Positions 3,588 through 16,850 of a stretch of DNA of 64,000 nt are shown here, piece after piece. Numbering within the stretch: position 1 is the first letter of the stretch; each line of letters begins with the position of its first letter. This stretch comes from a virus (taxonomy: Duplodnaviria > Caudoviricetes). Below the pieces are notes generated by a model. It was not told the origin of the DNA and did no database searches. It was given only the letters and a program-made list of their open reading frames with translations. A program made the position numbers and the translations under genes. Where the stretch lies: the IMG/VR virus record IMGVR_UViG_3300031760_000034, positions 10,980-74,979 of that record. One strand, written 5' to 3'.

Positions 3588-4690
3588 GGAATCACTGGCT
3601 TCCCAGCCTTGTGGCAATCCGGTCAGCGCATGTAAACAGTCTCATTAGCTGGCGCGAAATAGTACAACTTGATCCGAGAATATGTTAGCCTGCTCAACAG
3701 GTGAGAAACCCAAAAGGTAGGATGAAATGCTATGATGTTGTACGTACTATACAACTGAAAAGTTCATAGTAAGTGGGGAGAGCGTATGTATCAGACCCCA
3801 ACACATATATAAACCAGACAGGTTCTTTATGCCTGATCCAGACTTATGAAGTGTGGGATATATGTAAGGAAGACGCACAGAGTAAACCGAAAAAGAAATG
3901 CTACTGCTTGTTCATGCAATTCTTAAGTAGCTCTAAACTGAACCGTATCGATAAATCTACTATAAGCGATACATAATAGTAGAATCACGTTACACGAGTT
4001 GAACATACAGACAAGATGCCAAACCCTGTATGATGTATCGATTCACTATAGCTGTAGTCCAGTGTCACAGGTCTCCAAAACCTGCATTGAGGGACGAGTC
4101 TGAGTATATTAGCCTAGCAGAAGGCTTGACTGTCTGCGCTGTACCGTAACTACGGTCCTTGAAGAAATCCTTTCAGTTTCGATTACTGAATGACCACCTT
4201 TGAGGCTACGGTCCCACTGGGTCACTAGGGATGGGGTGCTGAGGAAAATATGATGAAGACAACCGATGAGCTTTTGGTCGTTTATTCGGTATATAAAAGA
4301 GAAAATGACCGCTAGGTAGATGGCGCTACCTATGGCGAAGTAGGGCATAGATGCTTGAAGGCCACGCGAGTGAAGTCCGCGAGTAAGACTATTCTAAAGT
4401 TACAAAAGACTATGGTAAGCGATAGTTAAGTAGTATAGATTGGAGATGTACCAGAGGAAATGCTGGAGTCGAAGGATGACAACCTGACAGTCAAATCCAA
4501 ATTCTTTCTTATAGTGAGATGGGTCGATTCGAAGCCTGTACAGCCAGTACAGAGAGAGATCGCTCACATTTTAATAAGGATAGTATATGCAATAAAATAG
4601 CACTGTTATACTATATCAGCGAGAGTAGTAAACTCGTGTGCGGTATAACTTGACTATGCACGGAAAATATACGAAAGTAGTTGAAATGTA
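3575..4690 (+). ncRNA. Candidate large structured non-coding RNA, module A
   Basis: No credible ORF in either code. Dense stems, e.g. GCCAGTGA-GGAA-TCACTGGC (3580-3599), pseudoknot 3945-3983, ACCGT/ACGGT (4143-4156), TTCAGT-TTCGATT-ACTGAA (4172-4190), TAGGTAG/CTACCTA (4313-4332), CTGTAC/GTACAG (4536-4552) inside GTGAG/CTCAC (4514-4567). GNRA and T-loop motifs read on the + strand. Confidence 0.6.
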
Positions 4691-7351: not shown

Positions 7352-7897
7352 ATGACAAAATCAATTAAGTTGAATGCAGCTAACACTCTTAGTATCAAGA
7401 AGAAGATTGACAATGATATTACTAAATTTAGTCATATCATCCGTGATGAGAATGTGATGTCAAAGAAGGCTAAGGCAGCAGGTCAGGGTTCTGGTCTCGA
7501 CCTTAAGTCTCTGTATAATACTATTCAGCAGCTTCGTGCTAAACGAATTATGTTGAAGGGTATGATTCAGTATCTCAATATGGGTACTACAACATTCAAT
7601 TACGAGGATTTTAAGAAAACCAATTATTTTGCTATTTTCTCTGCCTGTGAGGCTAAGGAGGACATCACTCTGTTGAAGATGATTAAGACTCTGAACCCGC
7701 AGCTTAAGGCTCAGAAGGGTAAGAAGAACATCGGTTCTACTGAGACTTTCTCTAAGGAGAAGATTGCACAGCTGATACATGATCAGCAGCTTGAGGCTAA
7801 TAAGTTTGATGCTATGTTGGAGAAGTTTAATACTTCTGCTACTATCGAGATTTCAGAGGAGAATTCTGATGATTTCAAGGAGTATCTTACTACATAA
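7352..7897 (+). CDS. Hypothetical helical/coiled-coil protein
   Basis: ATG 7352 follows the AT-rich TTTAACAAATTAAATC leader (the track starts at TTG 7346). Pattern loosely resembles DIP1984-like helical proteins (from memory, unverified). Confidence 0.8.
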   Translation: MTKSIKLNAANTLSIKKKIDNDITKFSHIIRDENVMSKKAKAAGQGSGLDLKSLYNTIQQLRAKRIMLKGMIQYLNMGTTTFNYEDFKKTNYFAIFSACEAKEDITLLKMIKTLNPQLKAQKGKKNIGSTETFSKEKIAQLIHDQQLEANKFDAMLEKFNTSATIEISEENSDDFKEYLTT

Positions 7898-7903
7898 TAT
7901 AAT

Positions 7904-7975
7904 TGGTTAGATTAGATGAACGACGTGTAAAGAAACGTTAGGCAATATGAGGTTCGAATCCTCAACTAATCGCAA
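7904..7975 (+). ncRNA. tRNA-like element 1 (acceptor plus T-arm, no D-arm)
   Basis: TGAGG-TTCGAAT-CCTCA T-arm (7948-7964). GGTTAG(7905-7910)/CTAATC(7966-7971) acceptor-like helix. Single central hairpin GACGT-GTAAAGAA-ACGTT. No canonical anticodon arm, no encoded CCA. Confidence 0.5.
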
Positions 7976-8026
7976 GTTTATCCCGCAAAGTAAACTTTAG
8001 TATTAACAATTTAAATCATTATCAAA

Positions 8027-8797
8027 ATGAGTAGAAAGAATTTTACAGTGGCAACGACCGAAGATGGTAAGACCACATTGACAAAGATAGATAAGACTCC
8101 CACAGGTAAAGTAAAGACAATGAAGAATAAGGAAGAGCTTCAGAAAGCCCGTGAGGAACAGTATAAAAACTTCCGCATTAACGCTTTGAAGCGCCGTGCT
8201 AAGCGCATGGGATTGACTGATGAGCAAATAGCAGTTAAGGTTAAGGAGTTGGAGAAGCAAATGGCTTCTACTAATGATTATGATATACTTATCATGTATA
8301 ACCCCAACGACTTCAACCTGGTAAAGCAAGCCCTATTGAATGACAACATAGCATGGAAGATGCTTGTATCGTCATATGGATTCATTGAGGGTGATGATGA
8401 ACTGCTAGCAGACCTGCGAAAACTACTTCCGCCGTCTGCAAAAATCTATCCGCATGTGAAGCGCAAGCCGCCAATCTTGCCCTCACAGCAGCCTTCTGGA
8501 CGTAGTAAGAAGACTCGTACGAAGGCTGAGAAGAAGAATCTCGCAGCAGCAGCTAAGAAAGCGCGCAAGGCTGCAAAGAGCCTAAAGACTAAAGAAGCGC
8601 GACGACAGCAGGTTATTGCTAAGCATAAAGAGGAGAAAAATAAGACTTCTCGTAAGGCAGCAAAGGCTAAAATGCTGTTCGATAAACGCTGTCAGAAGGC
8701 TCAAAAAGCTAAGGGTGGTACGACTATACAGACGAAGGCTAAAAAGCCGTCAGTGAGCCCGAAAAAGGCCTCTACGAGCCTAAAACAGGCCGCTTAA
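8027..8797 (+). CDS. Basic Lys/Ala-rich protein with a histone-H1-like tail
   Basis: C-terminal third rich in K/A/R (AAAAKKARKAAK, SPKKAS); ends ...LKQAA. Confidence 0.8.
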   Translation: MSRKNFTVATTEDGKTTLTKIDKTPTGKVKTMKNKEELQKAREEQYKNFRINALKRRAKRMGLTDEQIAVKVKELEKQMASTNDYDILIMYNPNDFNLVKQALLNDNIAWKMLVSSYGFIEGDDELLADLRKLLPPSAKIYPHVKRKPPILPSQQPSGRSKKTRTKAEKKNLAAAAKKARKAAKSLKTKEARRQQVIAKHKEEKNKTSRKAAKAKMLFDKRCQKAQKAKGGTTIQTKAKKPSVSPKKASTSLKQAA

Positions 8798-8826
8798 CCT
8801 ATGTGTAACTTAACTATTATGTAATT

Positions 8827-9666
8827 ATGGGACACAATAGAGTACGAGCAAAAGTGCGTCAAAGAAAAGTAGCCGCACTTGCAGCCTATAGCCGTCAGTT
8901 TACCGTTAGAAACACGAAGAAAGGTATATCTGAAAAGATAGATCATAAGCGTGTTGGAGGTGATATTCCTAAGGATATGATTATAACAAATCCTCTAACT
9001 GGTAATAAGTTTGTAATGGTTAATCCTCATACCATAACTGGCAATTATGGAGTAACTATAACAAGTCACGACTGGATTCCTATAGAGGAATATAAGTCTG
9101 AACATGGCTTATTATGGGAGCACAAAAAGTATCCACAGTCTAAGAATCTTCGAAAGAAGGTATCTCACTGGTATACTACAAAAGATGGTGTGAAACATTA
9201 TGTATCACATAAGTCTGAGTATCCAGACTATACTCCTCATAAGATAAATCGGGTAGAGTATAATGAGAAACTTGTTGAGCATAAACTCAAGAAGTGGGAA
9301 CGTAAGAACCCAGCTCCAGCCGATATGTTCACTGAGGATGTAGAGAAGTGGAAACAACTGCGAGAAACAATGAAAGAACGATTTAGAGACTTCGTCGTCT
9401 CTATCTACGACCCTCTACCCTTGACTGGACGATTTGTCGTAGCCAAGGAAGGCTCTGCAAAATATACTGAAGAGAAAGTTGCAGAGATTAAGGATATCAA
9501 TGGTGATGGACACCGCGTAAATGAAGTCACCAAAGATTCCAAATTAATTAAGAAAGCTCAGAAGATTACCAATGAGACAAAAGCAAAGCGCAAGAATCTC
9601 ATTGCAACTAATCTGAAAGACCATAAGCGACAGAAAGGTAGGATAATCTTACCTGAAGCCGCATAA
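8827..9666 (+). CDS. Hypothetical basic protein
   Basis: 279 aa, K-rich, ends ...LPEAA. Confidence 0.8.
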   Translation: MGHNRVRAKVRQRKVAALAAYSRQFTVRNTKKGISEKIDHKRVGGDIPKDMIITNPLTGNKFVMVNPHTITGNYGVTITSHDWIPIEEYKSEHGLLWEHKKYPQSKNLRKKVSHWYTTKDGVKHYVSHKSEYPDYTPHKINRVEYNEKLVEHKLKKWERKNPAPADMFTEDVEKWKQLRETMKERFRDFVVSIYDPLPLTGRFVVAKEGSAKYTEEKVAEIKDINGDGHRVNEVTKDSKLIKKAQKITNETKAKRKNLIATNLKDHKRQKGRIILPEAA

Positions 9667-9710
9667 ATACACATTACACACACTCTTCGCAACGGTAGTT
9701 GTGTAATGTG

Positions 9711-9797
9711 GGGTGTGCTACCAGAGTCCATACACGGACGTTAGGATGGTTCTTCGTCAGCGAAACGGAGAGTGGTTCGATTCCACCGCACATACTA
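9711..9797 (+). ncRNA. tRNA-like element 2
   Basis: GTGTGC(9713-9718)/GCACAT(9788-9793) acceptor followed by U8A9. GTGG-TTCGATT-CCAC T-arm (9772-9786). Enlarged D-side arm (ACCA..GTCC/GGAC..TGGT) and a 7-bp stem with loop CAGCGAA. No variable loop, no U33. Confidence 0.55.
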
Positions 9798-9813
9798 ACT
9801 AAATAGTAGAAGC

Positions 9814-11679
9814 ATGATAATTAAGAACCTATGTGTCCATACTTATGACATAGAGGTATTTCCAAACTGCTTCCACTGTTGTTGCAAGAATACTGAGACT
9901 AATCAAGTCATTAAATTCGAGATAAGCGAGAGAAGGAATCAGCTGGCAGAGCTAGTTGATTTCTTCTTTTATAGTCTTGACAACAAAATGTTTTGTGGGT
10001 ATAATAACCATCATTATGATGATGTTATTATCAACTATATGATTGATTTGTTTTACAAACTCAACCAATTACCATATTGGAAGATATGTAGATCGCTGTA
10101 TAACCTTTCAACAACTATAGTAAATTCAGAAGATGGAAACATCGAAAAGTTTAAAAAGTGGAAGTATGCGAAGTACTTCTATTCAATGGATTTACTAACG
10201 ATGCAATTCAGTCGTAAATTGCGCGTAGGTCTTAAAACCATGCAATGCACTATGCACTATAGAAACGTGCAAGAATACGATGGTGACTTTAATGCACCTA
10301 TCCCAGTCAGTAAGATTGACGATATGATTGCATATAATGTCAATGATGTTGACTCAACTACAGAACTTCTTAATAGATTAGCAGATCAAGTCGAGCTTAG
10401 ACTTTTTATTGAGAAAGAGCACGGCATAGACTGTTTATCTATGGATTCTGTTAAGATGGCAGAGACTTTTCTACTCGAAAAATACTCCGAGAAGTCAGGT
10501 ATTCCTAAAAATGTTATAAAGGAAATGAGATCTCCGATGGATTATATTCCATTGAAAGATATTATACTGCCATTTATAAAATACAAAAACCCAAAGTTAC
10601 AGAGCATCTTAGAGGAAATGAAGGAACAGGTAGTTTACTCTAAGGAGCGAAAAGGCTACGAGAAGAAGTTTGTTCTCTCGAATGTGGTATATTCTATAGG
10701 AGTTGGAGGTATCCATACTATTCATACTCCTAAAATATTCCTCCCAAAAGATGATGAGGTGATTGGGCACGCTGATGTGGCGTCAATGTACCCGTCCTTG
10801 CTCATTGAATATCAATGGGGTCCTCGTCATTTGGGAAAATTATTTTGCGAATTGTTTGCCCAATTGAAAGTCGAAAGACTAGAAGCAAAACATACAGGTC
10901 AGAAAGTTAAGAACATGTTCCTTAAGATTGTGCTTAATTCACCTACAGGCAAAATGCAACAAGAGGTTAGTTGGATGTACGATCCATTTAATGTGTTTAA
11001 AATACGCATTAATGGCCAATTGATACTTCTTTTGCTCGTAGACAGGCTTTTAGCACTTGGATGTGAAATTATTCAGTGCAATACAGATGGAGTCGTCTAC
11101 AAGGCTAAAAAGGGCCTTAAACAGGCTATTTCAGATGCTATTAAGGAGGTGGAAGACCTTACTAGACTGGAATTTGAATCTGACGAGTATGAAGCATTCT
11201 ATCAGTACGCTATTAATGACTACTTTGGTGTCTTAAAAGATGGTGAGATAGAAGAAAAAGGTATGTTTATTACTAAACACAAGTTAGGCAAAGGACTTGC
11301 TCCGGTAGTAATACCGAAGGCTGTAATAAACTACTTCGTGAAAGGAGAACCAATTGAAGAATTTATTAAATCTGATGGAGACATCAGGGACTTCCTTATG
11401 AGCCAACAGGTTGATAAGAAGTTTGAAGTGTGGCACGCGGAAAATCAAGTGCAACGCATTAATAGATTCTACGCATCTACTGATGGAGCATATTTATTTA
11501 AATATGACCCAAATAGTGGACGTGATAAAGAAAATATGCTAACTAAATCAGGAGTAACAATCTTGAATCAGTTATACGATACTACTGTAGAAGGTCGAAA
11601 GATTAACTACAGGTACTATATCAGCGAAGCCAAGAAGATTATTTCTGACTTTACTGAACAACAACTAGAACTATTTTAA
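9814..11679 (+). CDS. polB: DNA polymerase, family B
   Basis: Exonuclease motifs YDIEVF and GYNNHHYDD; polymerase motifs DVASMYPS, KIVLNSPTGK and NTDG. No intein-sized insertion. Confidence 0.93.
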   Translation: MIIKNLCVHTYDIEVFPNCFHCCCKNTETNQVIKFEISERRNQLAELVDFFFYSLDNKMFCGYNNHHYDDVIINYMIDLFYKLNQLPYWKICRSLYNLSTTIVNSEDGNIEKFKKWKYAKYFYSMDLLTMQFSRKLRVGLKTMQCTMHYRNVQEYDGDFNAPIPVSKIDDMIAYNVNDVDSTTELLNRLADQVELRLFIEKEHGIDCLSMDSVKMAETFLLEKYSEKSGIPKNVIKEMRSPMDYIPLKDIILPFIKYKNPKLQSILEEMKEQVVYSKERKGYEKKFVLSNVVYSIGVGGIHTIHTPKIFLPKDDEVIGHADVASMYPSLLIEYQWGPRHLGKLFCELFAQLKVERLEAKHTGQKVKNMFLKIVLNSPTGKMQQEVSWMYDPFNVFKIRINGQLILLLLVDRLLALGCEIIQCNTDGVVYKAKKGLKQAISDAIKEVEDLTRLEFESDEYEAFYQYAINDYFGVLKDGEIEEKGMFITKHKLGKGLAPVVIPKAVINYFVKGEPIEEFIKSDGDIRDFLMSQQVDKKFEVWHAENQVQRINRFYASTDGAYLFKYDPNSGRDKENMLTKSGVTILNQLYDTTVEGRKINYRYYISEAKKIISDFTEQQLELF

Positions 11680-11680
11680 T

Positions 11681-12247
11681 ATGATTATTGAAGTAGATAC
11701 TAAAATCCTGGACGCGTTTCCAGGTCTCAATTCAAATCAGTTAATATTCCTAAGTATGATATTGGGTAAGAATCAACCAAAATATCAAGACGTCCGCAAA
11801 ATTGTCAGCCTTATAAGCGACGAAGACATATCATACTTAGTTTCTCAAGAACTAGTAACTGCGATAGAGAGCAGTGAGTCAATTACATATCAGCCAACGG
11901 ATAAACTTATATCCTCGGTTAAACCAGAGAAAGATTATTTCGATGTGTTTTATGATATGTACCCAGTGTATGTTATGCGAGCAGATGGGAGTAAATCTTA
12001 TCTACGAGCTAATGTTAACAAGTGCCGTCATTTCTTCAACAGTAAATGTGGGAGAAGTTCTGCAATGGCGGAGCATTTAATTAAATGTCTAGATTATGAA
12101 GTTTCAAAGCGTATGCGAGAGGGTTCTCTAGGCTATATGATGACAATGTGGAACTGGTTAACACGTTCACAGTGGGAAGCGATTGAGGAAGAAATGCAGG
12201 ATACAACTAAACAAGCTGTAAACTCTTATGGAACAGAACTTATCTAA
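11681..12247 (+). CDS. Putative replication initiator or helicase-loader-like protein
   Basis: Lies between polB and the helicase. N-terminal HTH-like region and a C-terminal 'FDVFYDMYP...WNWL' pattern typical of phage replisome organisers (inference). Confidence 0.55.
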   Translation: MIIEVDTKILDAFPGLNSNQLIFLSMILGKNQPKYQDVRKIVSLISDEDISYLVSQELVTAIESSESITYQPTDKLISSVKPEKDYFDVFYDMYPVYVMRADGSKSYLRANVNKCRHFFNSKCGRSSAMAEHLIKCLDYEVSKRMREGSLGYMMTMWNWLTRSQWEAIEEEMQDTTKQAVNSYGTELI

Positions 12248-13154
12248 TCTTGTAAGACCTATGCGAGTTGTAGCCCAAGAGGCTATAAACTATGTAGAAG
12301 GTCGAAAGAATCACGATGTGGTATCTTTACAGACTAGGTGGAAGAAGTTCAATAAGCAATGTATGGGTGGTATTGAACCTAATACTATTTATACATTTGG
12401 AGGCATTTCTGGAACAGGAAAGAGTTCACTTGTGAACACAATCCAAACTGATTTGATAGAGCTAAATCCTTCTAGGGATATAATAATTCTGAACTTCTCA
12501 TTAGAGATGGTAGCATTTAGGCAAGTTGGAAGGACGCTTTCTAATAAGCTCAGGAAAACGACTTCGACTTTGTATAGCTCGGAAACGAGCCTTGATGACA
12601 GCACTTTTGCTCAGGTCATTAAAGTATGTAACCAGCTAAAGGAGTATCCTATCTATTTTGTAGATAGTCCTACTACTCCCATGCAAGTTCAAGAGATTGT
12701 ATTTAATTTCTATAATACGTATGTAAAAGGTACAGGAAAGCATTTCGTCATACTATATGACCATGCTCTCTTAACCAAACCGATCGGGACCGTACTGGAA
12801 ACGATTGCAGAGTTACAACGTGTTTTCATTCAGGTCAAGAAATTGCCTATGACATCTGTTATACAGATTGCTCAGATGAATCGAAATATAGAAGCTCCTG
12901 AAAGGATTAATAATCCGCTGTCGCATTATCCTATGCGTAGCGATTTTTCATCGTCTGATGCAATTTTCCAAGGCAGTGATTATGTCATGGCTCTACATCG
13001 ACCAGAGATTTTGAACATCTTAGAATATGGTCCAAATCATTTACCTACTCAAAACAAGGTATACGTGCACATCCTAAAGAATAGAGATGCTGGTAAGCCT
13101 TGCATACTCGAATTCGAGAACGACCTAATGTTCAACAACCTCATTGAATGTTAA
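12228..13154 (+). CDS. dnaB: Replicative SF4 (DnaB-like) helicase
   Basis: Walker A GGISGTGKS, 'FSLEM', 'VILYDH', 'QMNR', 'SSSDAIFQGSD', 'HILKNRDAG'. Confidence 0.92.
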   Translation: MEQNLSNLVRPMRVVAQEAINYVEGRKNHDVVSLQTRWKKFNKQCMGGIEPNTIYTFGGISGTGKSSLVNTIQTDLIELNPSRDIIILNFSLEMVAFRQVGRTLSNKLRKTTSTLYSSETSLDDSTFAQVIKVCNQLKEYPIYFVDSPTTPMQVQEIVFNFYNTYVKGTGKHFVILYDHALLTKPIGTVLETIAELQRVFIQVKKLPMTSVIQIAQMNRNIEAPERINNPLSHYPMRSDFSSSDAIFQGSDYVMALHRPEILNILEYGPNHLPTQNKVYVHILKNRDAGKPCILEFENDLMFNNLIEC

Positions 13155-13196
13155 TGCATCAGACTAGTATTAACGTTTTAAAAGAAAGGCTGAATT

Positions 13197-13655
13197 ATGA
13201 CAAAGTATACTTTTTCTCTTAAGGATAATAACAAGATTAACAATACCTTTTGTGGCAATACCAGTACAAACTATTCTAAGATTCTTGATGATCTTATCAA
13301 TGCTGATATAAAGGAGAAGAACCCGTGGTTGTTTACTAATAGTACTCCTAAGACGGAGACCATTAAGATTAAGATTAATGGTAAGACTACAAATACGTTC
13401 GATATGAGCGATATTTATAAGTTCTTCAATGGTTATAAGTTTACTAACAACTGCCCCTTTATTAAGGATAAGATTTATTATCTCGCAGATGGTACTCCTT
13501 TCTACCTGACTGATGATTATATCACGATTGGTTTTAATACGTATTACTTCTACGAGTTCGGTAACCCCATTTTTATTAATGGCATGACCGATAGTTTCAA
13601 GAAGACTATTGCTACGATTTATATTGATGGTCTGAAGATTACAATTAAGAAATAA
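13197..13655 (+). CDS. Hypothetical protein
   Basis: 152-aa ORF preceded by the TAGTATTAAC motif. Confidence 0.8.
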   Translation: MTKYTFSLKDNNKINNTFCGNTSTNYSKILDDLINADIKEKNPWLFTNSTPKTETIKIKINGKTTNTFDMSDIYKFFNGYKFTNNCPFIKDKIYYLADGTPFYLTDDYITIGFNTYYFYEFGNPIFINGMTDSFKKTIATIYIDGLKITIKK

Positions 13656-13667
13656 TTTAGTATAATT

Positions 13668-14414
13668 ATGAGCTTAGTACTACCAACACAACCAGTTCCT
13701 GCGACTTCGGTTAATCCTCAGTATCTCATACTGTATGGACTGCCGAAATCAGGAAAGACCAGCTGTGTTGCTCAGATACCTAACAATTTGATTATAGACC
13801 TCGAAGGAGGTTCTACTTTTATTGATGCTATGGCTGTACAAGCACGCACGATAGAAGATCTTGGTCAAATTGCTCAGGCGATTCGAGCAAAGAACGAAGA
13901 AGTTGGTCATAAATTTTATAAACATATTACAATTGATAATGCAACTCGTCTAGAGGACATTTGCATGGGTTACGCTTGCACGTTGTATCGTCAAACTGAA
14001 CTAGGTAAAAACTGGAAAGGTAATGATGTTACAACACTTGCTCGTGGTGCTGGATATGGTTATCTTCGAACAGCAGTAAAGAAGGTAATTGACATGTTCA
14101 AAGAACTCTGTGATGAGTTTATACTTATAGGACATGTCAAAGACAGCATTACAGATAAAGATGGCCAAGAGGTCAATGCCAAAGAGATTGACCTTGTCGG
14201 GAAACTCGGCAAGATTGTATGCGGCATGGCCGACGCAGTTGGCTACGTGTATCGCAAAGACAATGAAACCCATATTAGCTTTAAGTCCGGAGGAGACGGC
14301 ACTATTATGGAAGCACGTGCTCGTCATATCGCGGGCAAAGATATCGTCATTGCGACAGGCAACGAAGATGGAAGCATAACAACATATTGGGATAAAGTTT
14401 ATAAACCTGAATAA
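13668..14414 (+). CDS. AAA-family ATPase (AAA_24/Sak4-like recombination protein)
   Basis: Walker A YGLPKSGKT, 'IIDLEGGS', Walker B 'ITIDNAT', 'ILIGH', 'ADAVGY'. Adjacent to the SSB gene. Confidence 0.85.
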   Translation: MSLVLPTQPVPATSVNPQYLILYGLPKSGKTSCVAQIPNNLIIDLEGGSTFIDAMAVQARTIEDLGQIAQAIRAKNEEVGHKFYKHITIDNATRLEDICMGYACTLYRQTELGKNWKGNDVTTLARGAGYGYLRTAVKKVIDMFKELCDEFILIGHVKDSITDKDGQEVNAKEIDLVGKLGKIVCGMADAVGYVYRKDNETHISFKSGGDGTIMEARARHIAGKDIVIATGNEDGSITTYWDKVYKPE

Positions 14415-14427
14415 AATCTAAGGAACT

Positions 14428-15039
14428 ATGTATAGTACAAAAACAGCAACAACAAATAATACGGAGTTTAATAGCTCGTATATGCCTACTGGCATCAATG
14501 AAAATATAACCTTGAAAGAGGTTAACGTAAATAAGACACCTAACGGTCGTGATTTCTTGGAGATAATCTTTGAGAATGAAAACGGTCAGACAGCAACTAT
14601 GACTGAGTGGAAGAACGAGAAGAATATGTGGATTAAGACCGACGAGGATTTACAGCGTCGCGATAATCAGCAGTTTGGTCGTATTCTGCAGGTAATAGAT
14701 GCAGTTAAAGGTGGTCATAATGACTTTGAGGGTTCCTCATTCATCGAAATGATTACTTGGGCTAAGACTTGTCTTAGTGATGGTGAGAGTAGTTCTGTTC
14801 GTCTTAAGGTGACTTATGACAAGAATGGATATACTCAGGTGTCTAAGAACGGTATTTTTATTGAAGCCATGAGTGTTGCAAAAGAAGAGTCGCAGATTAA
14901 GCTTTGGAAGAACGATCTTCTGGAGCGTCCCGTACAGGCTGACGTTGAGAAGCCTAACGATCCGCTCGGATCACCTAATATTGGTGTAACCGCTCCGGTG
15001 ACTGCAGACTCTACAGGTGCTGACGACCTTCCTTTCTGA
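14428..15039 (+). CDS. ssb: Single-stranded DNA-binding protein (phage type)
   Basis: Follows the Sak4-like ATPase; beta-rich core, flexible tail and terminal DDLPF. Confidence 0.75.
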   Translation: MYSTKTATTNNTEFNSSYMPTGINENITLKEVNVNKTPNGRDFLEIIFENENGQTATMTEWKNEKNMWIKTDEDLQRRDNQQFGRILQVIDAVKGGHNDFEGSSFIEMITWAKTCLSDGESSSVRLKVTYDKNGYTQVSKNGIFIEAMSVAKEESQIKLWKNDLLERPVQADVEKPNDPLGSPNIGVTAPVTADSTGADDLPF

Positions 15040-15093
15040 GGATAATGGTCAGTGGTGGAGGACTGGAGGATTAATCCTTCAGCCCCTTACTAA

Positions 15094-15184
15094 GGGTTTA
15101 TATGCAACGGCAGTCGGGCGGCTGGTGGGATGGTAAACCACGTAAATGCAGTCCGTTTGGGGTTCAACTCCCCGTAAACCCACA
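15094..15184 (+). ncRNA. tRNA-like element 3 (perfect acceptor stem, rearranged core, possible GGU anticodon)
   Basis: GGGTTTA(15094-15100)/TAAACCC 7-bp acceptor with A73 and U8A9. TGGGG-TTCAACT-CCCCG T-arm. 55-nt core with AACGG/CCGTT, CAGTC/GGCTG and GTGG-GATGGTAAA-CCAC. Confidence 0.6.
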
Positions 15185-15219
15185 CATTATCTTGACTTAA
15201 TTATGACGAAAGAAGAGAT

Positions 15220-15405
15220 ATGAAAGTTTATGTAAAATGGTATAATGATATAAAAGAAGGAGATCTACTTGAAGAAGAATATCTTATTGATAAATTTAAA
15301 TATAGACAAGTAGTAATAAATATTGATGGTCATACAATAACAGCATTATATACTCCTGAACACATATACTATGACGAAAGAAGAGAGAAAAGTTTGGTAT
15401 CATGA
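15220..15405 (+). CDS. Small hypothetical protein
   Basis: 61-aa ORF with an A-rich leader, between tRNA-like elements 3 and 4. Confidence 0.6.
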   Translation: MKVYVKWYNDIKEGDLLEEEYLIDKFKYRQVVINIDGHTITALYTPEHIYYDERREKSLVS

Positions 15406-15495
15406 TTGGTGGTGGAATCGTGGTGGTAGAGAACAGACTCTACAACGACGAAGAGAAAGAGGTCCTCTAAAATGGGGTACCAAACTAAACAATGG

Positions 15496-15576
15496 AAATC
15501 AGTAGCCTAGAGGTTATGGCGGTCATCTACGAGATAGGTGACGGATTGTGGGGTTCGATTCCTCACCTGGTTACAA
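15496..15576 (+). ncRNA. tRNA-like element 4 (6/6 acceptor/T fold, extended anticodon arm)
   Basis: AATCAG/CTGGTT acceptor, U8A9, GCC-TAGAGGTTAT-GGC D-arm, GTCATCTA-CGAGA-TAGGTGAC arm, GGATT variable loop, GTGGGG-TTCGATT-CCTCAC T-arm. Ends ACAA one base before the HicA ATG. Confidence 0.65.
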
Positions 15577-15577
15577 T

Positions 15578-15802
15578 ATGAAAGGAAAGAAAGCATTAAA
15601 AACTTATTCCTACAAAGAATTTAAAGAACTTCTTGGTACTCTTGGGTTCTTTGAGCATCATAAGAATAGTACACATATGGTATTTGCAAATGCAAAGCGT
15701 CGATATGTTACTGTACCTTTTTCTAATAAGAAAGAGATAAATCCTATGATGACTACAGTAACTCTACAGAGGATTAAGAATCATCAATGTAGGACATTGT
15801 AA
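15578..15802 (+). CDS. hicA: HicA-family (dsRBD-fold) RNase-like protein with no adjacent HicB
   Basis: 'KEFKELLGTLGFFEHHKNSTHMVF...VTVPF...KEINP' matches the HicA pattern (GF..xSH..F..VTVP). ATG 15578 is preferred to the track's GTG 15548, which lies inside the T-arm. Confidence 0.7.
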   Translation: MKGKKALKTYSYKEFKELLGTLGFFEHHKNSTHMVFANAKRRYVTVPFSNKKEINPMMTTVTLQRIKNHQCRTL

Positions 15803-15803
15803 T

Positions 15804-16850
15804 ATGTATAGTACTAAAACAGCTATTACAATGACAATGAGTCTCAAAGACTTGTTGGAGAAGCTGAGCGATTATGACATTTATAGCTATTATCTAGGTT
15901 CATTTAAACCTGGAAAGCTTATAAATAGTCCTTTGAGACCAGATGATAAGATACCTAGTTTTGCTATATTTCCTAGTAAGACTGGAGATCTGTTATTTAA
16001 GGATCATGGGACAGGAGAAGCAGGTAATGCTTTGAAATTTATAAAACTATACAAAGGAATTAATACACGAGAAGAGCTTGAACAAGAGCTGTTACGCATC
16101 GTCCGAAAAATGAACCCAATGGGCGGTAAGGCGAGAGCTACAGCCGTAAAAACGGTGGGTTTGGGGCTGACAGATATTGGAATAGTTCGTCAACCATTTA
16201 CTGAAGTAGATAAGCAATACTGGAAGCAATTCCATATTTCTATAGATACTCTAAAAAGGTTTAATGTGTTTAGCATAAAGTATTTCTTGTGCAATAGTAT
16301 TGTACGAGGAGTATATAAAGAAGACAATCCAATGTATGCTTATAAAGTGTATGATAAATTTAAGATTTATCGTCCTTTAGCAAGTAAGTATACTAAATGG
16401 AGAACTAATCTCACAGTAAGACATGTGCAGGGATTAGAGCAGCTTCAGCCTGATGGAGGAGATTTGCTTATAATAACTAAGTCGTTGAAAGACGTAATGT
16501 GTCTACATGAGATGGGATTCCATGCAATTGCTTCTGCAAGTGAAACTACATTTATACCTGAGGATATACTAAATGATTTAAAGAGTAAGTGGGATAATAT
16601 TATCATTCTATATGATAGAGATACTGCAGGAATGCAGAATGCTCGTCAGTATAGTAAACAATATAGCTTAGATGCTATCTTCGTTCATAAGAAGTTTAAG
16701 GCAAAGGACGTATCCGATGCTGTTAAAGCTAACGGATTCGTTGTTGTCAAGAATTGGTTAACTAAAACAGTAGAAAGATATGATAAATTGTATAATAGGA
16801 TCCCTGTTGGGGACATTGATTGGCCTAGTAGGAAGTCTCTGTATTCTTGA
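15804..16850 (+). CDS. dnaG: DNA primase (DnaG/TOPRIM type)
   Basis: N-terminal 'SPLRPDDKIPSF...FKDHG' domain; TOPRIM 'IITKSLKDVM' and 'ILYDRDTAG'. Confidence 0.88.
   Translation: MYSTKTAITMTMSLKDLLEKLSDYDIYSYYLGSFKPGKLINSPLRPDDKIPSFAIFPSKTGDLLFKDHGTGEAGNALKFIKLYKGINTREELEQELLRIVRKMNPMGGKARATAVKTVGLGLTDIGIVRQPFTEVDKQYWKQFHISIDTLKRFNVFSIKYFLCNSIVRGVYKEDNPMYAYKVYDKFKIYRPLASKYTKWRTNLTVRHVQGLEQLQPDGGDLLIITKSLKDVMCLHEMGFHAIASASETTFIPEDILNDLKSKWDNIIILYDRDTAGMQNARQYSKQYSLDAIFVHKKFKAKDVSDAVKANGFVVVKNWLTKTVERYDKLYNRIPVGDIDWPSRKSLYS

Follow-up and report, generated by a model that had tools for sequence, protein, structure and literature searches.

tRNA-like elements between replication genes of a rumen crAss-like phage as candidate signals of transcript punctuation

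In animal mitochondria, units shaped like transfer RNA (tRNA) and situated between genes set the cuts in the transcript and leave messenger RNAs (mRNAs) that are almost leaderless. Here we describe four tRNA-like elements (E1 to E4) lying between genes of the early/replication region of a crAss-like phage, within a 64,000-nucleotide (nt) stretch of DNA that is called the window throughout (bases 10980-74979 of the 74,979-base IMG/VR record IMGVR_UViG_3300031760_000034, which is estimated to be ~74% complete). Cleavage after E4 or E2 would likewise leave a nearly leaderless mRNA; in contrast to the mitochondrial units, which are working tRNAs, the four elements of the window appear unable to decode. 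The C4 antisense RNA of phages P1 and P7 is matured by RNase P, which is recruited via a tRNA-like fold, but C4 is a single regulatory antisense RNA that has neither a T-loop cloverleaf nor gap-specific families. The mascRNA of MALAT1 and the tRNA-like parts of the TMERs of murid herpesvirus 68 are non-aminoacylated, cut by RNase P and RNase Z, CCA-bearing and altered in their anticodon arms; unlike the phage elements they are eukaryotic, they are unrelated to them in sequence, and their function is tied to 3'-end formation or microRNA biogenesis. The tRNA cluster of phage T4 yields 'species 1 and 2', small stable tRNA-like RNAs of unknown function that are made with the tRNAs; compared by description only, these differ in being clustered with tRNAs, whereas the crAss-like elements are spread between protein genes.

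In plant mitochondria, t-elements with the same T-arm consensus direct cuts by RNase P and RNase Z at mRNA ends alongside genuine tRNAs (Forner et al. 2007, PMC1920247), and the released t-element RNAs can receive CCA-type additions (PMC1920247). Like the phage elements, they are non-canonical cloverleaves or acceptor-like stem-loops with the T-arm consensus, located on the sense strand inside transcripts and beside gene ends. They are organellar and their cleavage has been mapped experimentally, whereas that of the phage elements is predicted; the phage elements also differ in forming several sequence families with strong covariation and extra conserved cores. In the library searched, we found no paper that describes such elements in phages, whether Crassvirales or others. 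Few viruses of the gut are as abundant as the crAss-like phages, and the handling of their long transcripts is almost unknown. We tentatively read the four elements as tRNA-derived, non-decoding processing signals in the transcript with punctuation as their most likely function, a reading to which we give slightly less than even weight.

Detection of the four elements

The closest named relatives of the stretch (~75% identity across the polymerase-helicase block) belong to the crAss-like family Suoliviridae and come from pig and human faeces, and the sequencing runs that contain it come from bovine gut/rumen samples. The first-pass annotation had claimed four tRNA-like elements between genes. 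All four were found at the sites claimed, on the coding strand and in gaps between same-strand genes, by ARAGORN at an 80% threshold and by a census of T-arms with acceptors. No tRNA is reported in the window at the default threshold of ARAGORN (0 genes) or at the Rfam gathering score (0). At the 80% threshold ARAGORN scores are 94.1 for E1 (7901-7973), 91.2 for E2 (9711-9796), 90.0 for E3 (15094-15183) and 95.2 for E4 (15497-15574), which places the four among the five best sub-threshold matches of the whole 75-kb record. When short stretches were searched with the Rfam tRNA model (RF00005), E4 reached 25.5 bits against a curated cut-off of 29, the T-arm alone was matched in E3, and E1 was not matched; E2 gave a weak Rfam match to tRNA-Sec (18.6 bits). 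Likeness to tRNA is graded, E4 having most of it, then E2, E3 and E1. No other Rfam family, including the transfer-messenger RNA (tmRNA) domain and the Y-RNA-like YrlA, matched over the elements at E <= 10, the weak matches there being to the tRNA clan only.

The census searched for a T-stem of 5 base pairs (bp) with a 7-nt T-loop, followed by an acceptor strand with an upstream partner. It gave eight matches on the coding strand and one on the opposite strand, compared with a mean of 1.46 for both strands together in shuffled sequence. The eight comprise E1 to E4, two canonical tRNAs (Met and Gln), a tmRNA-like tRNA domain and one weak match. Among 80 related loci, which were retrieved via the helicase gene and share a conserved gene order, ARAGORN matches scoring at least 90 number 54 between genes on the coding strand versus 3 + 3 inside genes, and the sub-threshold matches (90-100) divide into 35 on the coding strand versus 7 on the other. 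The four elements are far commoner than expected by chance, and tRNA finders under-report the contents of crAss-like intergenic gaps.

A few other ARAGORN calls may be mentioned here. A sub-threshold match (93.9) at 4583-4664 of the minus strand, without a proper T-loop and inside a ~2.2-kb stretch that lacks long open reading frames (ORFs), is probably due to chance. The intron mode of ARAGORN was of no use, as at default it finds just the two canonical tRNAs upstream of the window and at the 80% threshold it makes >130 obviously spurious calls. Upstream of the window, a tmRNA marked as permuted is called at 9892-10243 of the record (1096-1447 of L001); its tag has 15 residues, the last two of them alanine. 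Immediately 3' of it are the only two canonical tRNAs of the phage (tRNA-Met at 10297-10371 and tRNA-Gln at 10386-10457, record numbering); a phage-borne two-piece tmRNA would be unusual.

Folds and sequence families of the elements

The elements reside in three gaps, which are named S1 (3' of the gene ending at 7897), S2 (5' of the DNA polymerase gene polB) and S3 (from the gene end at 15039 to the primase gene). E1, in S1, starts 12 nt after the stop codon of the upstream gene and is built as follows.

7910-7971, + strand: E1, a three-way-junction RNA with 17 distinct family members
7910-7915 with 7966-7971, + strand: closing helix of E1, which covaries
7922-7926 with 7935-7939, + strand: stem of the middle hairpin of E1, with a conserved 8-nt loop at 7927-7934
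7948-7964, + strand: T-arm of E1, with a canonical 7-nt T-loop at 7953-7959

Closing helix, hairpin and T-arm make up the whole architecture, with 1-2 bases between T-arm and closing helix and no D-arm. An acceptor helix starting at ~7902 had been proposed for E1 and is also the one drawn by ARAGORN; the element itself is real, but that helix is unsupported by relatives, and the helix that covaries is the one at 7910-7915/7966-7971. The latter is Watson-Crick in 17/17 members, with matched changes at five of its six positions. Since MAFFT mixed the two E1 subfamilies and misaligned E2 members with long inserts, pairs were counted on parsed segments (E1 and E2) and on the closer E1 subfamily. 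In this subfamily 100% of the cells are paired and 8 of 15 pairs are changed on both sides; among 500 shuffles none reached its values for paired cells, changed cells or covariation, and one reached its count of double-changed pairs. The 8-nt loop is kept in both, otherwise divergent, subfamilies, and in some relatives it is swapped for a GNRA tetraloop or other loops. In a scan by structure only, using no sequence motif, nearly all S1 gaps proved to have a single occupant, which was tRNA-Gln(UUG) in some and an E1-type element in others; the two were found together in no S1 gap scanned for both. One E1 subfamily has a short stretch in common with the 5' part of tRNA-Gln.

E2 ends ~17 nt ahead of the start codon of polB (9814) in S2.

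9712-9794, + strand: E2, a cloverleaf-like RNA with 11 distinct members of the window's subtype
9712-9718 with 9788-9794, + strand: acceptor of E2, whose outermost pair never forms
9719-9720, + strand: U8A9 of E2
9721-9723 with 9747-9749, + strand: D-like stem of E2, enclosing a small hairpin
9751-9756 with 9766-9771, + strand: long anticodon-like stem of E2, with a 9-nt loop
9772-9786, + strand: T-arm of E2, with the T-loop at 9776-9782
9673-9709, + strand: hairpin directly 5' of E2, its loop sequence kept in the closest relatives and its stem differing (found by reading, without statistics)

Acceptor pairs 2-7 are formed in all 11 members with several matched changes, the three-pair D-like stem alternates between two matched forms, and the T-stem and the long anticodon-like stem covary too. 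Conserved sequence is confined to the junctions. The D-like loop holds a hairpin of 9 to ~95 nt and the anticodon-like loop, on a stem of 6-7 bp, measures 5-29 nt and in some members contains a hairpin of its own, so that inserts across the two loops range from 5 to ~95 nt. Conservation limited to the junctions together with such variable loops argues that E2 is not an adaptor. In close relatives other cassettes are present at the same site between the same flanks. Subtype 2b is a cloverleaf in which the T-loop is swapped for a GNRA-type loop and the GG-bearing D segment is gone as well, subtype 2c has a simpler D hairpin, and the only occupant of the polB gap in L016 and L018 is an uninterrupted 12-bp hairpin with a 7-nt T-loop at its tip (z = -5). 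E2-type elements are also located hundreds of bases from polB, in arrays with tRNA-His and other look-alikes (L062, L068 and L261), which suggests that they are tRNA-type genes and not the leader of one gene.

Many relatives carry a further conserved structured module ahead of the E2-type element, which is not present in the window. It lies at 4357-4391 of L016 and at the same place in L014, L028, L029, L047, L055, L070, L071, L073, L082 and L266. Covariation is seen in its outer helix and in its inner hairpin, two of its junction sequences do not vary, inserts reach ~100 nt in some loci, and no Rfam family matched it at gathering score in the loci tested.

E4, the second element of S3, is the one closest to a canonical tRNA and ends 4-5 nt before the start codon (15578) of a HicA-like gene, which in relatives is always preceded by a tRNA or a tRNA look-alike.

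15497-15574, + strand: E4, a nearly complete tRNA body with 14 distinct members
15497-15502 with 15567-15572, + strand: acceptor of E4
15505-15520, + strand: D-arm of E4, with the usual A14 and GG
15522-15529 with 15535-15542, + strand: 8-bp stem of the anticodon arm of E4, with a 5-nt loop at 15530-15534
15548-15566, + strand: T-arm of E4, preceded by a variable loop of 5 nt

Across the 14 members 97.8% of the cells are paired and six pairs, in the D-stem, the anticodon-like stem and the T-stem, are double-changed; these values were reached by 0/500 shuffles and collapse in the slid-partner controls. Mean column identity is 92%, with hardly any variation in the D-loop, the variable loop of 5 nt or the T-loop. 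In some members the stem of the anticodon arm is bulged or mismatched halfway along. Between phages that share 70-85% identity in the neighbouring proteins, E4 itself is 86-91% identical.

E3, the first element of S3, is the weakest case and may be decaying, as its short list of relatives and its D region suggest.

15094-15183, + strand: E3, a tRNA-like RNA (ARAGORN 90.0) of which two other versions were found
15094-15100 with 15175-15181, + strand: acceptor of E3, a perfect 7 bp
15158-15174, + strand: T-arm of E3; U8A9 is present and the D region is shortened

The anticodon-like stem of E3 encloses an inserted hairpin and, 3' of it, a conserved single-stranded heptamer. The other versions come from L023/L021 and from the metagenome contig L260 only. 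All three have in common the acceptor, the T-arm and two conserved stretches flanking the inserted hairpin, which sits at the same point and is ~10 nt long in L260, ~17 nt in the window and ~125 nt in L023/L021. Matched differences among them affect one acceptor pair and the T-stem. L260 and L023/L021 have a canonical D-arm, which in the E3 of the window is shortened, with bases lost. A loose E3 pattern gave 116+ matches in the viral collection, about the chance expectation, and none was related; a tighter pattern gave 47 matches in the metagenome collection, L260 being the one true relative among them. When E3 was used as a BLAST query on the 80 loci, E3 itself was not recovered and just a motif upstream of it (15041-15103) was returned.

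This motif, a ~60-nt stretch with a short hairpin just 5' of E3, is conserved in dozens of relatives, often in two to three copies in the gap before the primase gene, where another short hairpin motif, likewise repeated, lies next to it. The stretch could be a promoter, a terminator or a signal of another kind. The structured 125-nt insert of the L023 version of E3 (~10480-10605) occurs free-standing in L016 (~9905-10020) and in L010, which suggests a movable RNA module. In L017, a 156-nt stretch (10405-10560) matches the full Rfam tRNA model with 39.6 bits and is a tRNA gene with an insertion of ~85 nt.

An anticodon stem of 5 bp with a 7-nt loop and U33 is absent from all four elements. In its place E4 has the 8-bp stem with 5-nt loop, E1 the 8-nt loop (a tetraloop in some relatives) and E3 the hairpin insert of ~10 to ~125 nt; taking the elements together, the inserted hairpins span 5 to ~125 nt. 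With anticodon arms replaced or bearing inserts, none of the four can decode, to judge by their predicted folds, as the first-pass annotation had proposed.

Genuine tRNAs were identified by ARAGORN at default in exactly the gaps S1, S2 and S3 in 22 of the 80 loci. S1 contains tRNA-Gln(UUG), S2 contains tRNA-Met, -Ile, -Leu(UAA) or -His, and S3 contains tRNA-Leu(UAA), -Phe or -Gln, or in other relatives diverse look-alikes. In nine related loci the Rfam matches at gathering score are to tRNA only. Across the three gaps the occupants are of four kinds, namely the genuine tRNA, the look-alike, the bare 12-bp hairpin with a T-loop and the cloverleaf with a GNRA-type loop. T-stem, spacer and acceptor stack to 12 layers in E1, E3 and E4 and to 11-12 in E2, and again to 12 in the bare hairpin of L016 and in subtype 2b. 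This acceptor/T-arm stack of ~12 layers is the sole common denominator of the gap occupants, in agreement with the earlier view that the acceptor/T half is the part that is kept. All four elements of the window carry the T-arm consensus. Frequent G-U pairs in the helices indicate that the fold belongs to the sense strand, that is, to RNA. E1, E2 and E4 are, as judged from their covariation, kept by selection and are not decaying pseudogenes. Relatives do hold canonical tRNAs at these sites, yet the elements of the window belong to conserved, covarying non-canonical families, which upholds the proposal that they are not products of random decay. It had also been pointed out that none of the four encodes CCA. 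This is true of all four but not distinctive, because the canonical tRNA-Gln of the phage likewise lacks an encoded CCA. The E1, E2 and E4 families can be used as annotation models for sequences that are now unlabelled or called 'tRNA pseudogene'.

Transcript punctuation and alternative explanations

Bacterial RNase P uses the acceptor/T-arm stack to place its cut and also acts on hairpins, and this half of the tRNA is likewise what RNase Z and the CCA-adding enzyme read. We propose that the elements would be transcribed within a long early/replication message, in which the acceptor helix on the T-arm, with its ~12 layers, would present the part of a tRNA that is measured by RNase P and recognised by RNase Z and the CCA-adding enzyme. 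Host enzymes of tRNA end processing would then cut the transcript at both borders of each element. Such cuts would separate the gene modules, so that the upstream mRNA would end soon after its stop codon and the downstream mRNA would have a very short leader, and would also free a small stable tRNA mimic. Where relatives have a genuine tRNA in such a gap, it would serve this purpose as well as decode. The cleavage, the enzymes responsible and a further role of the released RNA are what we infer here. Neither a CCA-adding enzyme nor an RtcB ligase was found in the 75-kb record, itself ~74% complete, and maturation would therefore rely on host enzymes. Since tRNAs, look-alikes and a minihelix are interchangeable in fixed gaps and have only the 12-layer stack in common, a pattern that resembles the use of t-elements and tRNAs in plant mitochondria, punctuation seems the likeliest function.

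Several observations weigh against this proposal. Some relatives make do with a bare 12-bp hairpin; the full D-arm and elbow of E4 and the conserved junctions and loops of E1 and E2 are thus more than processing can explain by itself, and an additional role of the elements is likely. The T-loop is replaced in some variants of the E2 slot, so that recognition of the T-loop is not universal. The outermost acceptor pair of E2 is unformed and the stack of E1 is interrupted by 1-2 unpaired bases, both of which could lower the efficiency of RNase P. The metatranscriptome consists of assembled contigs from four bovine rumen runs that cover the replication genes, from which ends, strand and level cannot be read. 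One contig, identical to the window, runs unbroken over E2 (9358-9997); it may derive from a precursor or from contaminating DNA and neither supports nor excludes cleavage. Contig cover has a gap at 15126-15727 and contigs end near 9691 and 9812, positions that in assembled contigs are not interpretable as RNA ends.

If RNase P and RNase Z are indeed recruited, tRNA punctuation of the mitochondrial type would also be a phage strategy, and genuine phage tRNAs in such gaps may serve a structural purpose besides decoding, which could account in part for phage tRNAs that look superfluous. The elements also offer clean substrates for studying the requirements of RNase P and RNase Z in Bacteroidales.

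It is also possible, and we consider it doubtful rather than improbable, that the released RNAs act in trans as tRNA mimics that bind readers of the tRNA body such as anticodon nucleases, other tRNA-sensing defences or modification enzymes. They would serve as decoys or sponges that are uncleavable because the anticodon loop is replaced, and processing would be a mere maturation route. Mimicry would fit the strongly kept tertiary core of E4 (U8, A14, the GG of the D-loop, the 5-nt variable loop and the T-loop), around which the anticodon arm alone has been rebuilt. It would also fit the E2a form, in which a D-loop-like GG segment is kept with the T-loop, the two having been lost together in subtype 2b, and the conservation of the E1 loop across two divergent subfamilies. 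This loop and its preceding base resemble the anticodon loop of tRNA-Tyr. However, some E1 relatives have exchanged the loop for a GNRA tetraloop or others, a bare minihelix is enough at the polB gap of some relatives, and the partner protein or defence system is hypothetical. A more specific form of the idea, which we regard as unlikely, is that rumen crAss-like phages keep a gap-specific repertoire of non-decoding, trans-acting tRNA mimics as decoys for anticodon-nuclease defences or for guanine-exchanging modification enzymes. E4 would then have the entire body of a tRNA and an anticodon loop closed up within a stem, the E1 loop and the E3 heptamer would imitate an anticodon loop of the tRNA-Tyr type, and transcript cutting would be a by-product. 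If the released RNAs are decoys, they would constitute a new class of anti-defence RNA.

A little less likely again is a role in cis without cleavage, in which the elements would act as 3' stability barriers for the upstream mRNA, or would bind a protein or ligand and so regulate how the next gene (polB or the HicA-like gene) is translated. The positions of E2 and E4, which end 17 and 4-5 nt before start codons, and of E1, which begins 12 nt past a stop codon, would suit such leaders and trailers, and the conserved junction bases and variable-length hairpins of E2 are riboswitch-like. This is at odds with the E2-type elements that lie hundreds of bases from polB in arrays of tRNAs and look-alikes, and with the distance from E1 to the downstream gene, which varies from ~50 to >600 nt among relatives; moreover, the ordinary tRNAs that fill the same gaps in relatives are not regulators of this kind.

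That the elements are plain tRNA pseudogenes, decaying without function at old tRNA sites, is improbable for the set and concerns mainly E3, with its few relatives and the D-arm bases lost compared with L260 and L023. Such an origin agrees with the canonical tRNAs that relatives have at these sites, and the stretch that one E1 subfamily has in common with the 5' part of tRNA-Gln suggests descent from tRNA-Gln. Nevertheless, the covariation and near-perfect pairing in E1, E2 and E4 (11-17 members) would not survive neutral decay and contradict this explanation for these three, and E4 is better conserved than the proteins next to it.

Least probable of all is that the elements are unusual working tRNAs, either E4 reading Leu CUN codons with a 7-nt loop on a 7-bp stem or one element supplying the missing TAG suppressor. 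With its innermost pair opened E4 does present GAG or AAG (Leu) as the middle loop bases in 14/14 members, several of its relatives are called tRNA-Leu(AAG) by ARAGORN (94-99), and a preprint notes that in recoded Crassvirales a suppressor is often not detectable and that unrecognised ones may be present (10.64898/2026.08.21.746148); but position 33 of E4 is not U and its stem exceeds by 2-3 bp what the usual distance from anticodon to acceptor allows, which makes decoding unlikely, and the loops of E1, E2 and E3 vary in length, take inserts of up to ~125 nt or are swapped for tetraloops. The link to the TAG code switch that had been considered for the elements is not supported, as CUA occurs in no loop of any element in any register and the three bases in E4 are paired in the stem in 14/14 members.

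Neighbouring genes

The genes around all four elements are on the + strand throughout.

9814-11679, + strand: DNA polymerase gene polB (PHROGs E = 8e-141)
13668-14414, + strand: RecA/Sak4-like gene (family match confirmed)
14428-15039, + strand: ORF labelled 'SSB' earlier, without a Pfam or PHROGs match
15578-15802, + strand: HicA-like toxin gene (Pfam HicA_toxin 27.1 bits against a cut-off of 27; PHROGs 'toxin')
15804-16850, + strand: Toprim primase gene (family match confirmed)

Family searches with Pfam and PHROGs confirmed the labels polB, HicA-like and primase given in the first-pass annotation and gave no match for the ORF at 14428-15039, for which the label 'SSB' is not sustained. The HicA-like gene adjoins the primase gene and has no obvious HicB partner alongside. 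Two short ORFs lie between E3 and E4 (15220-15405 and 15371-15505, in the region 15204-15505) and have the same 16-nt stretch at their start or ahead of it. The second of them (15371-15505) is rich in tryptophan and glycine, and a similar small ORF is present in L016.

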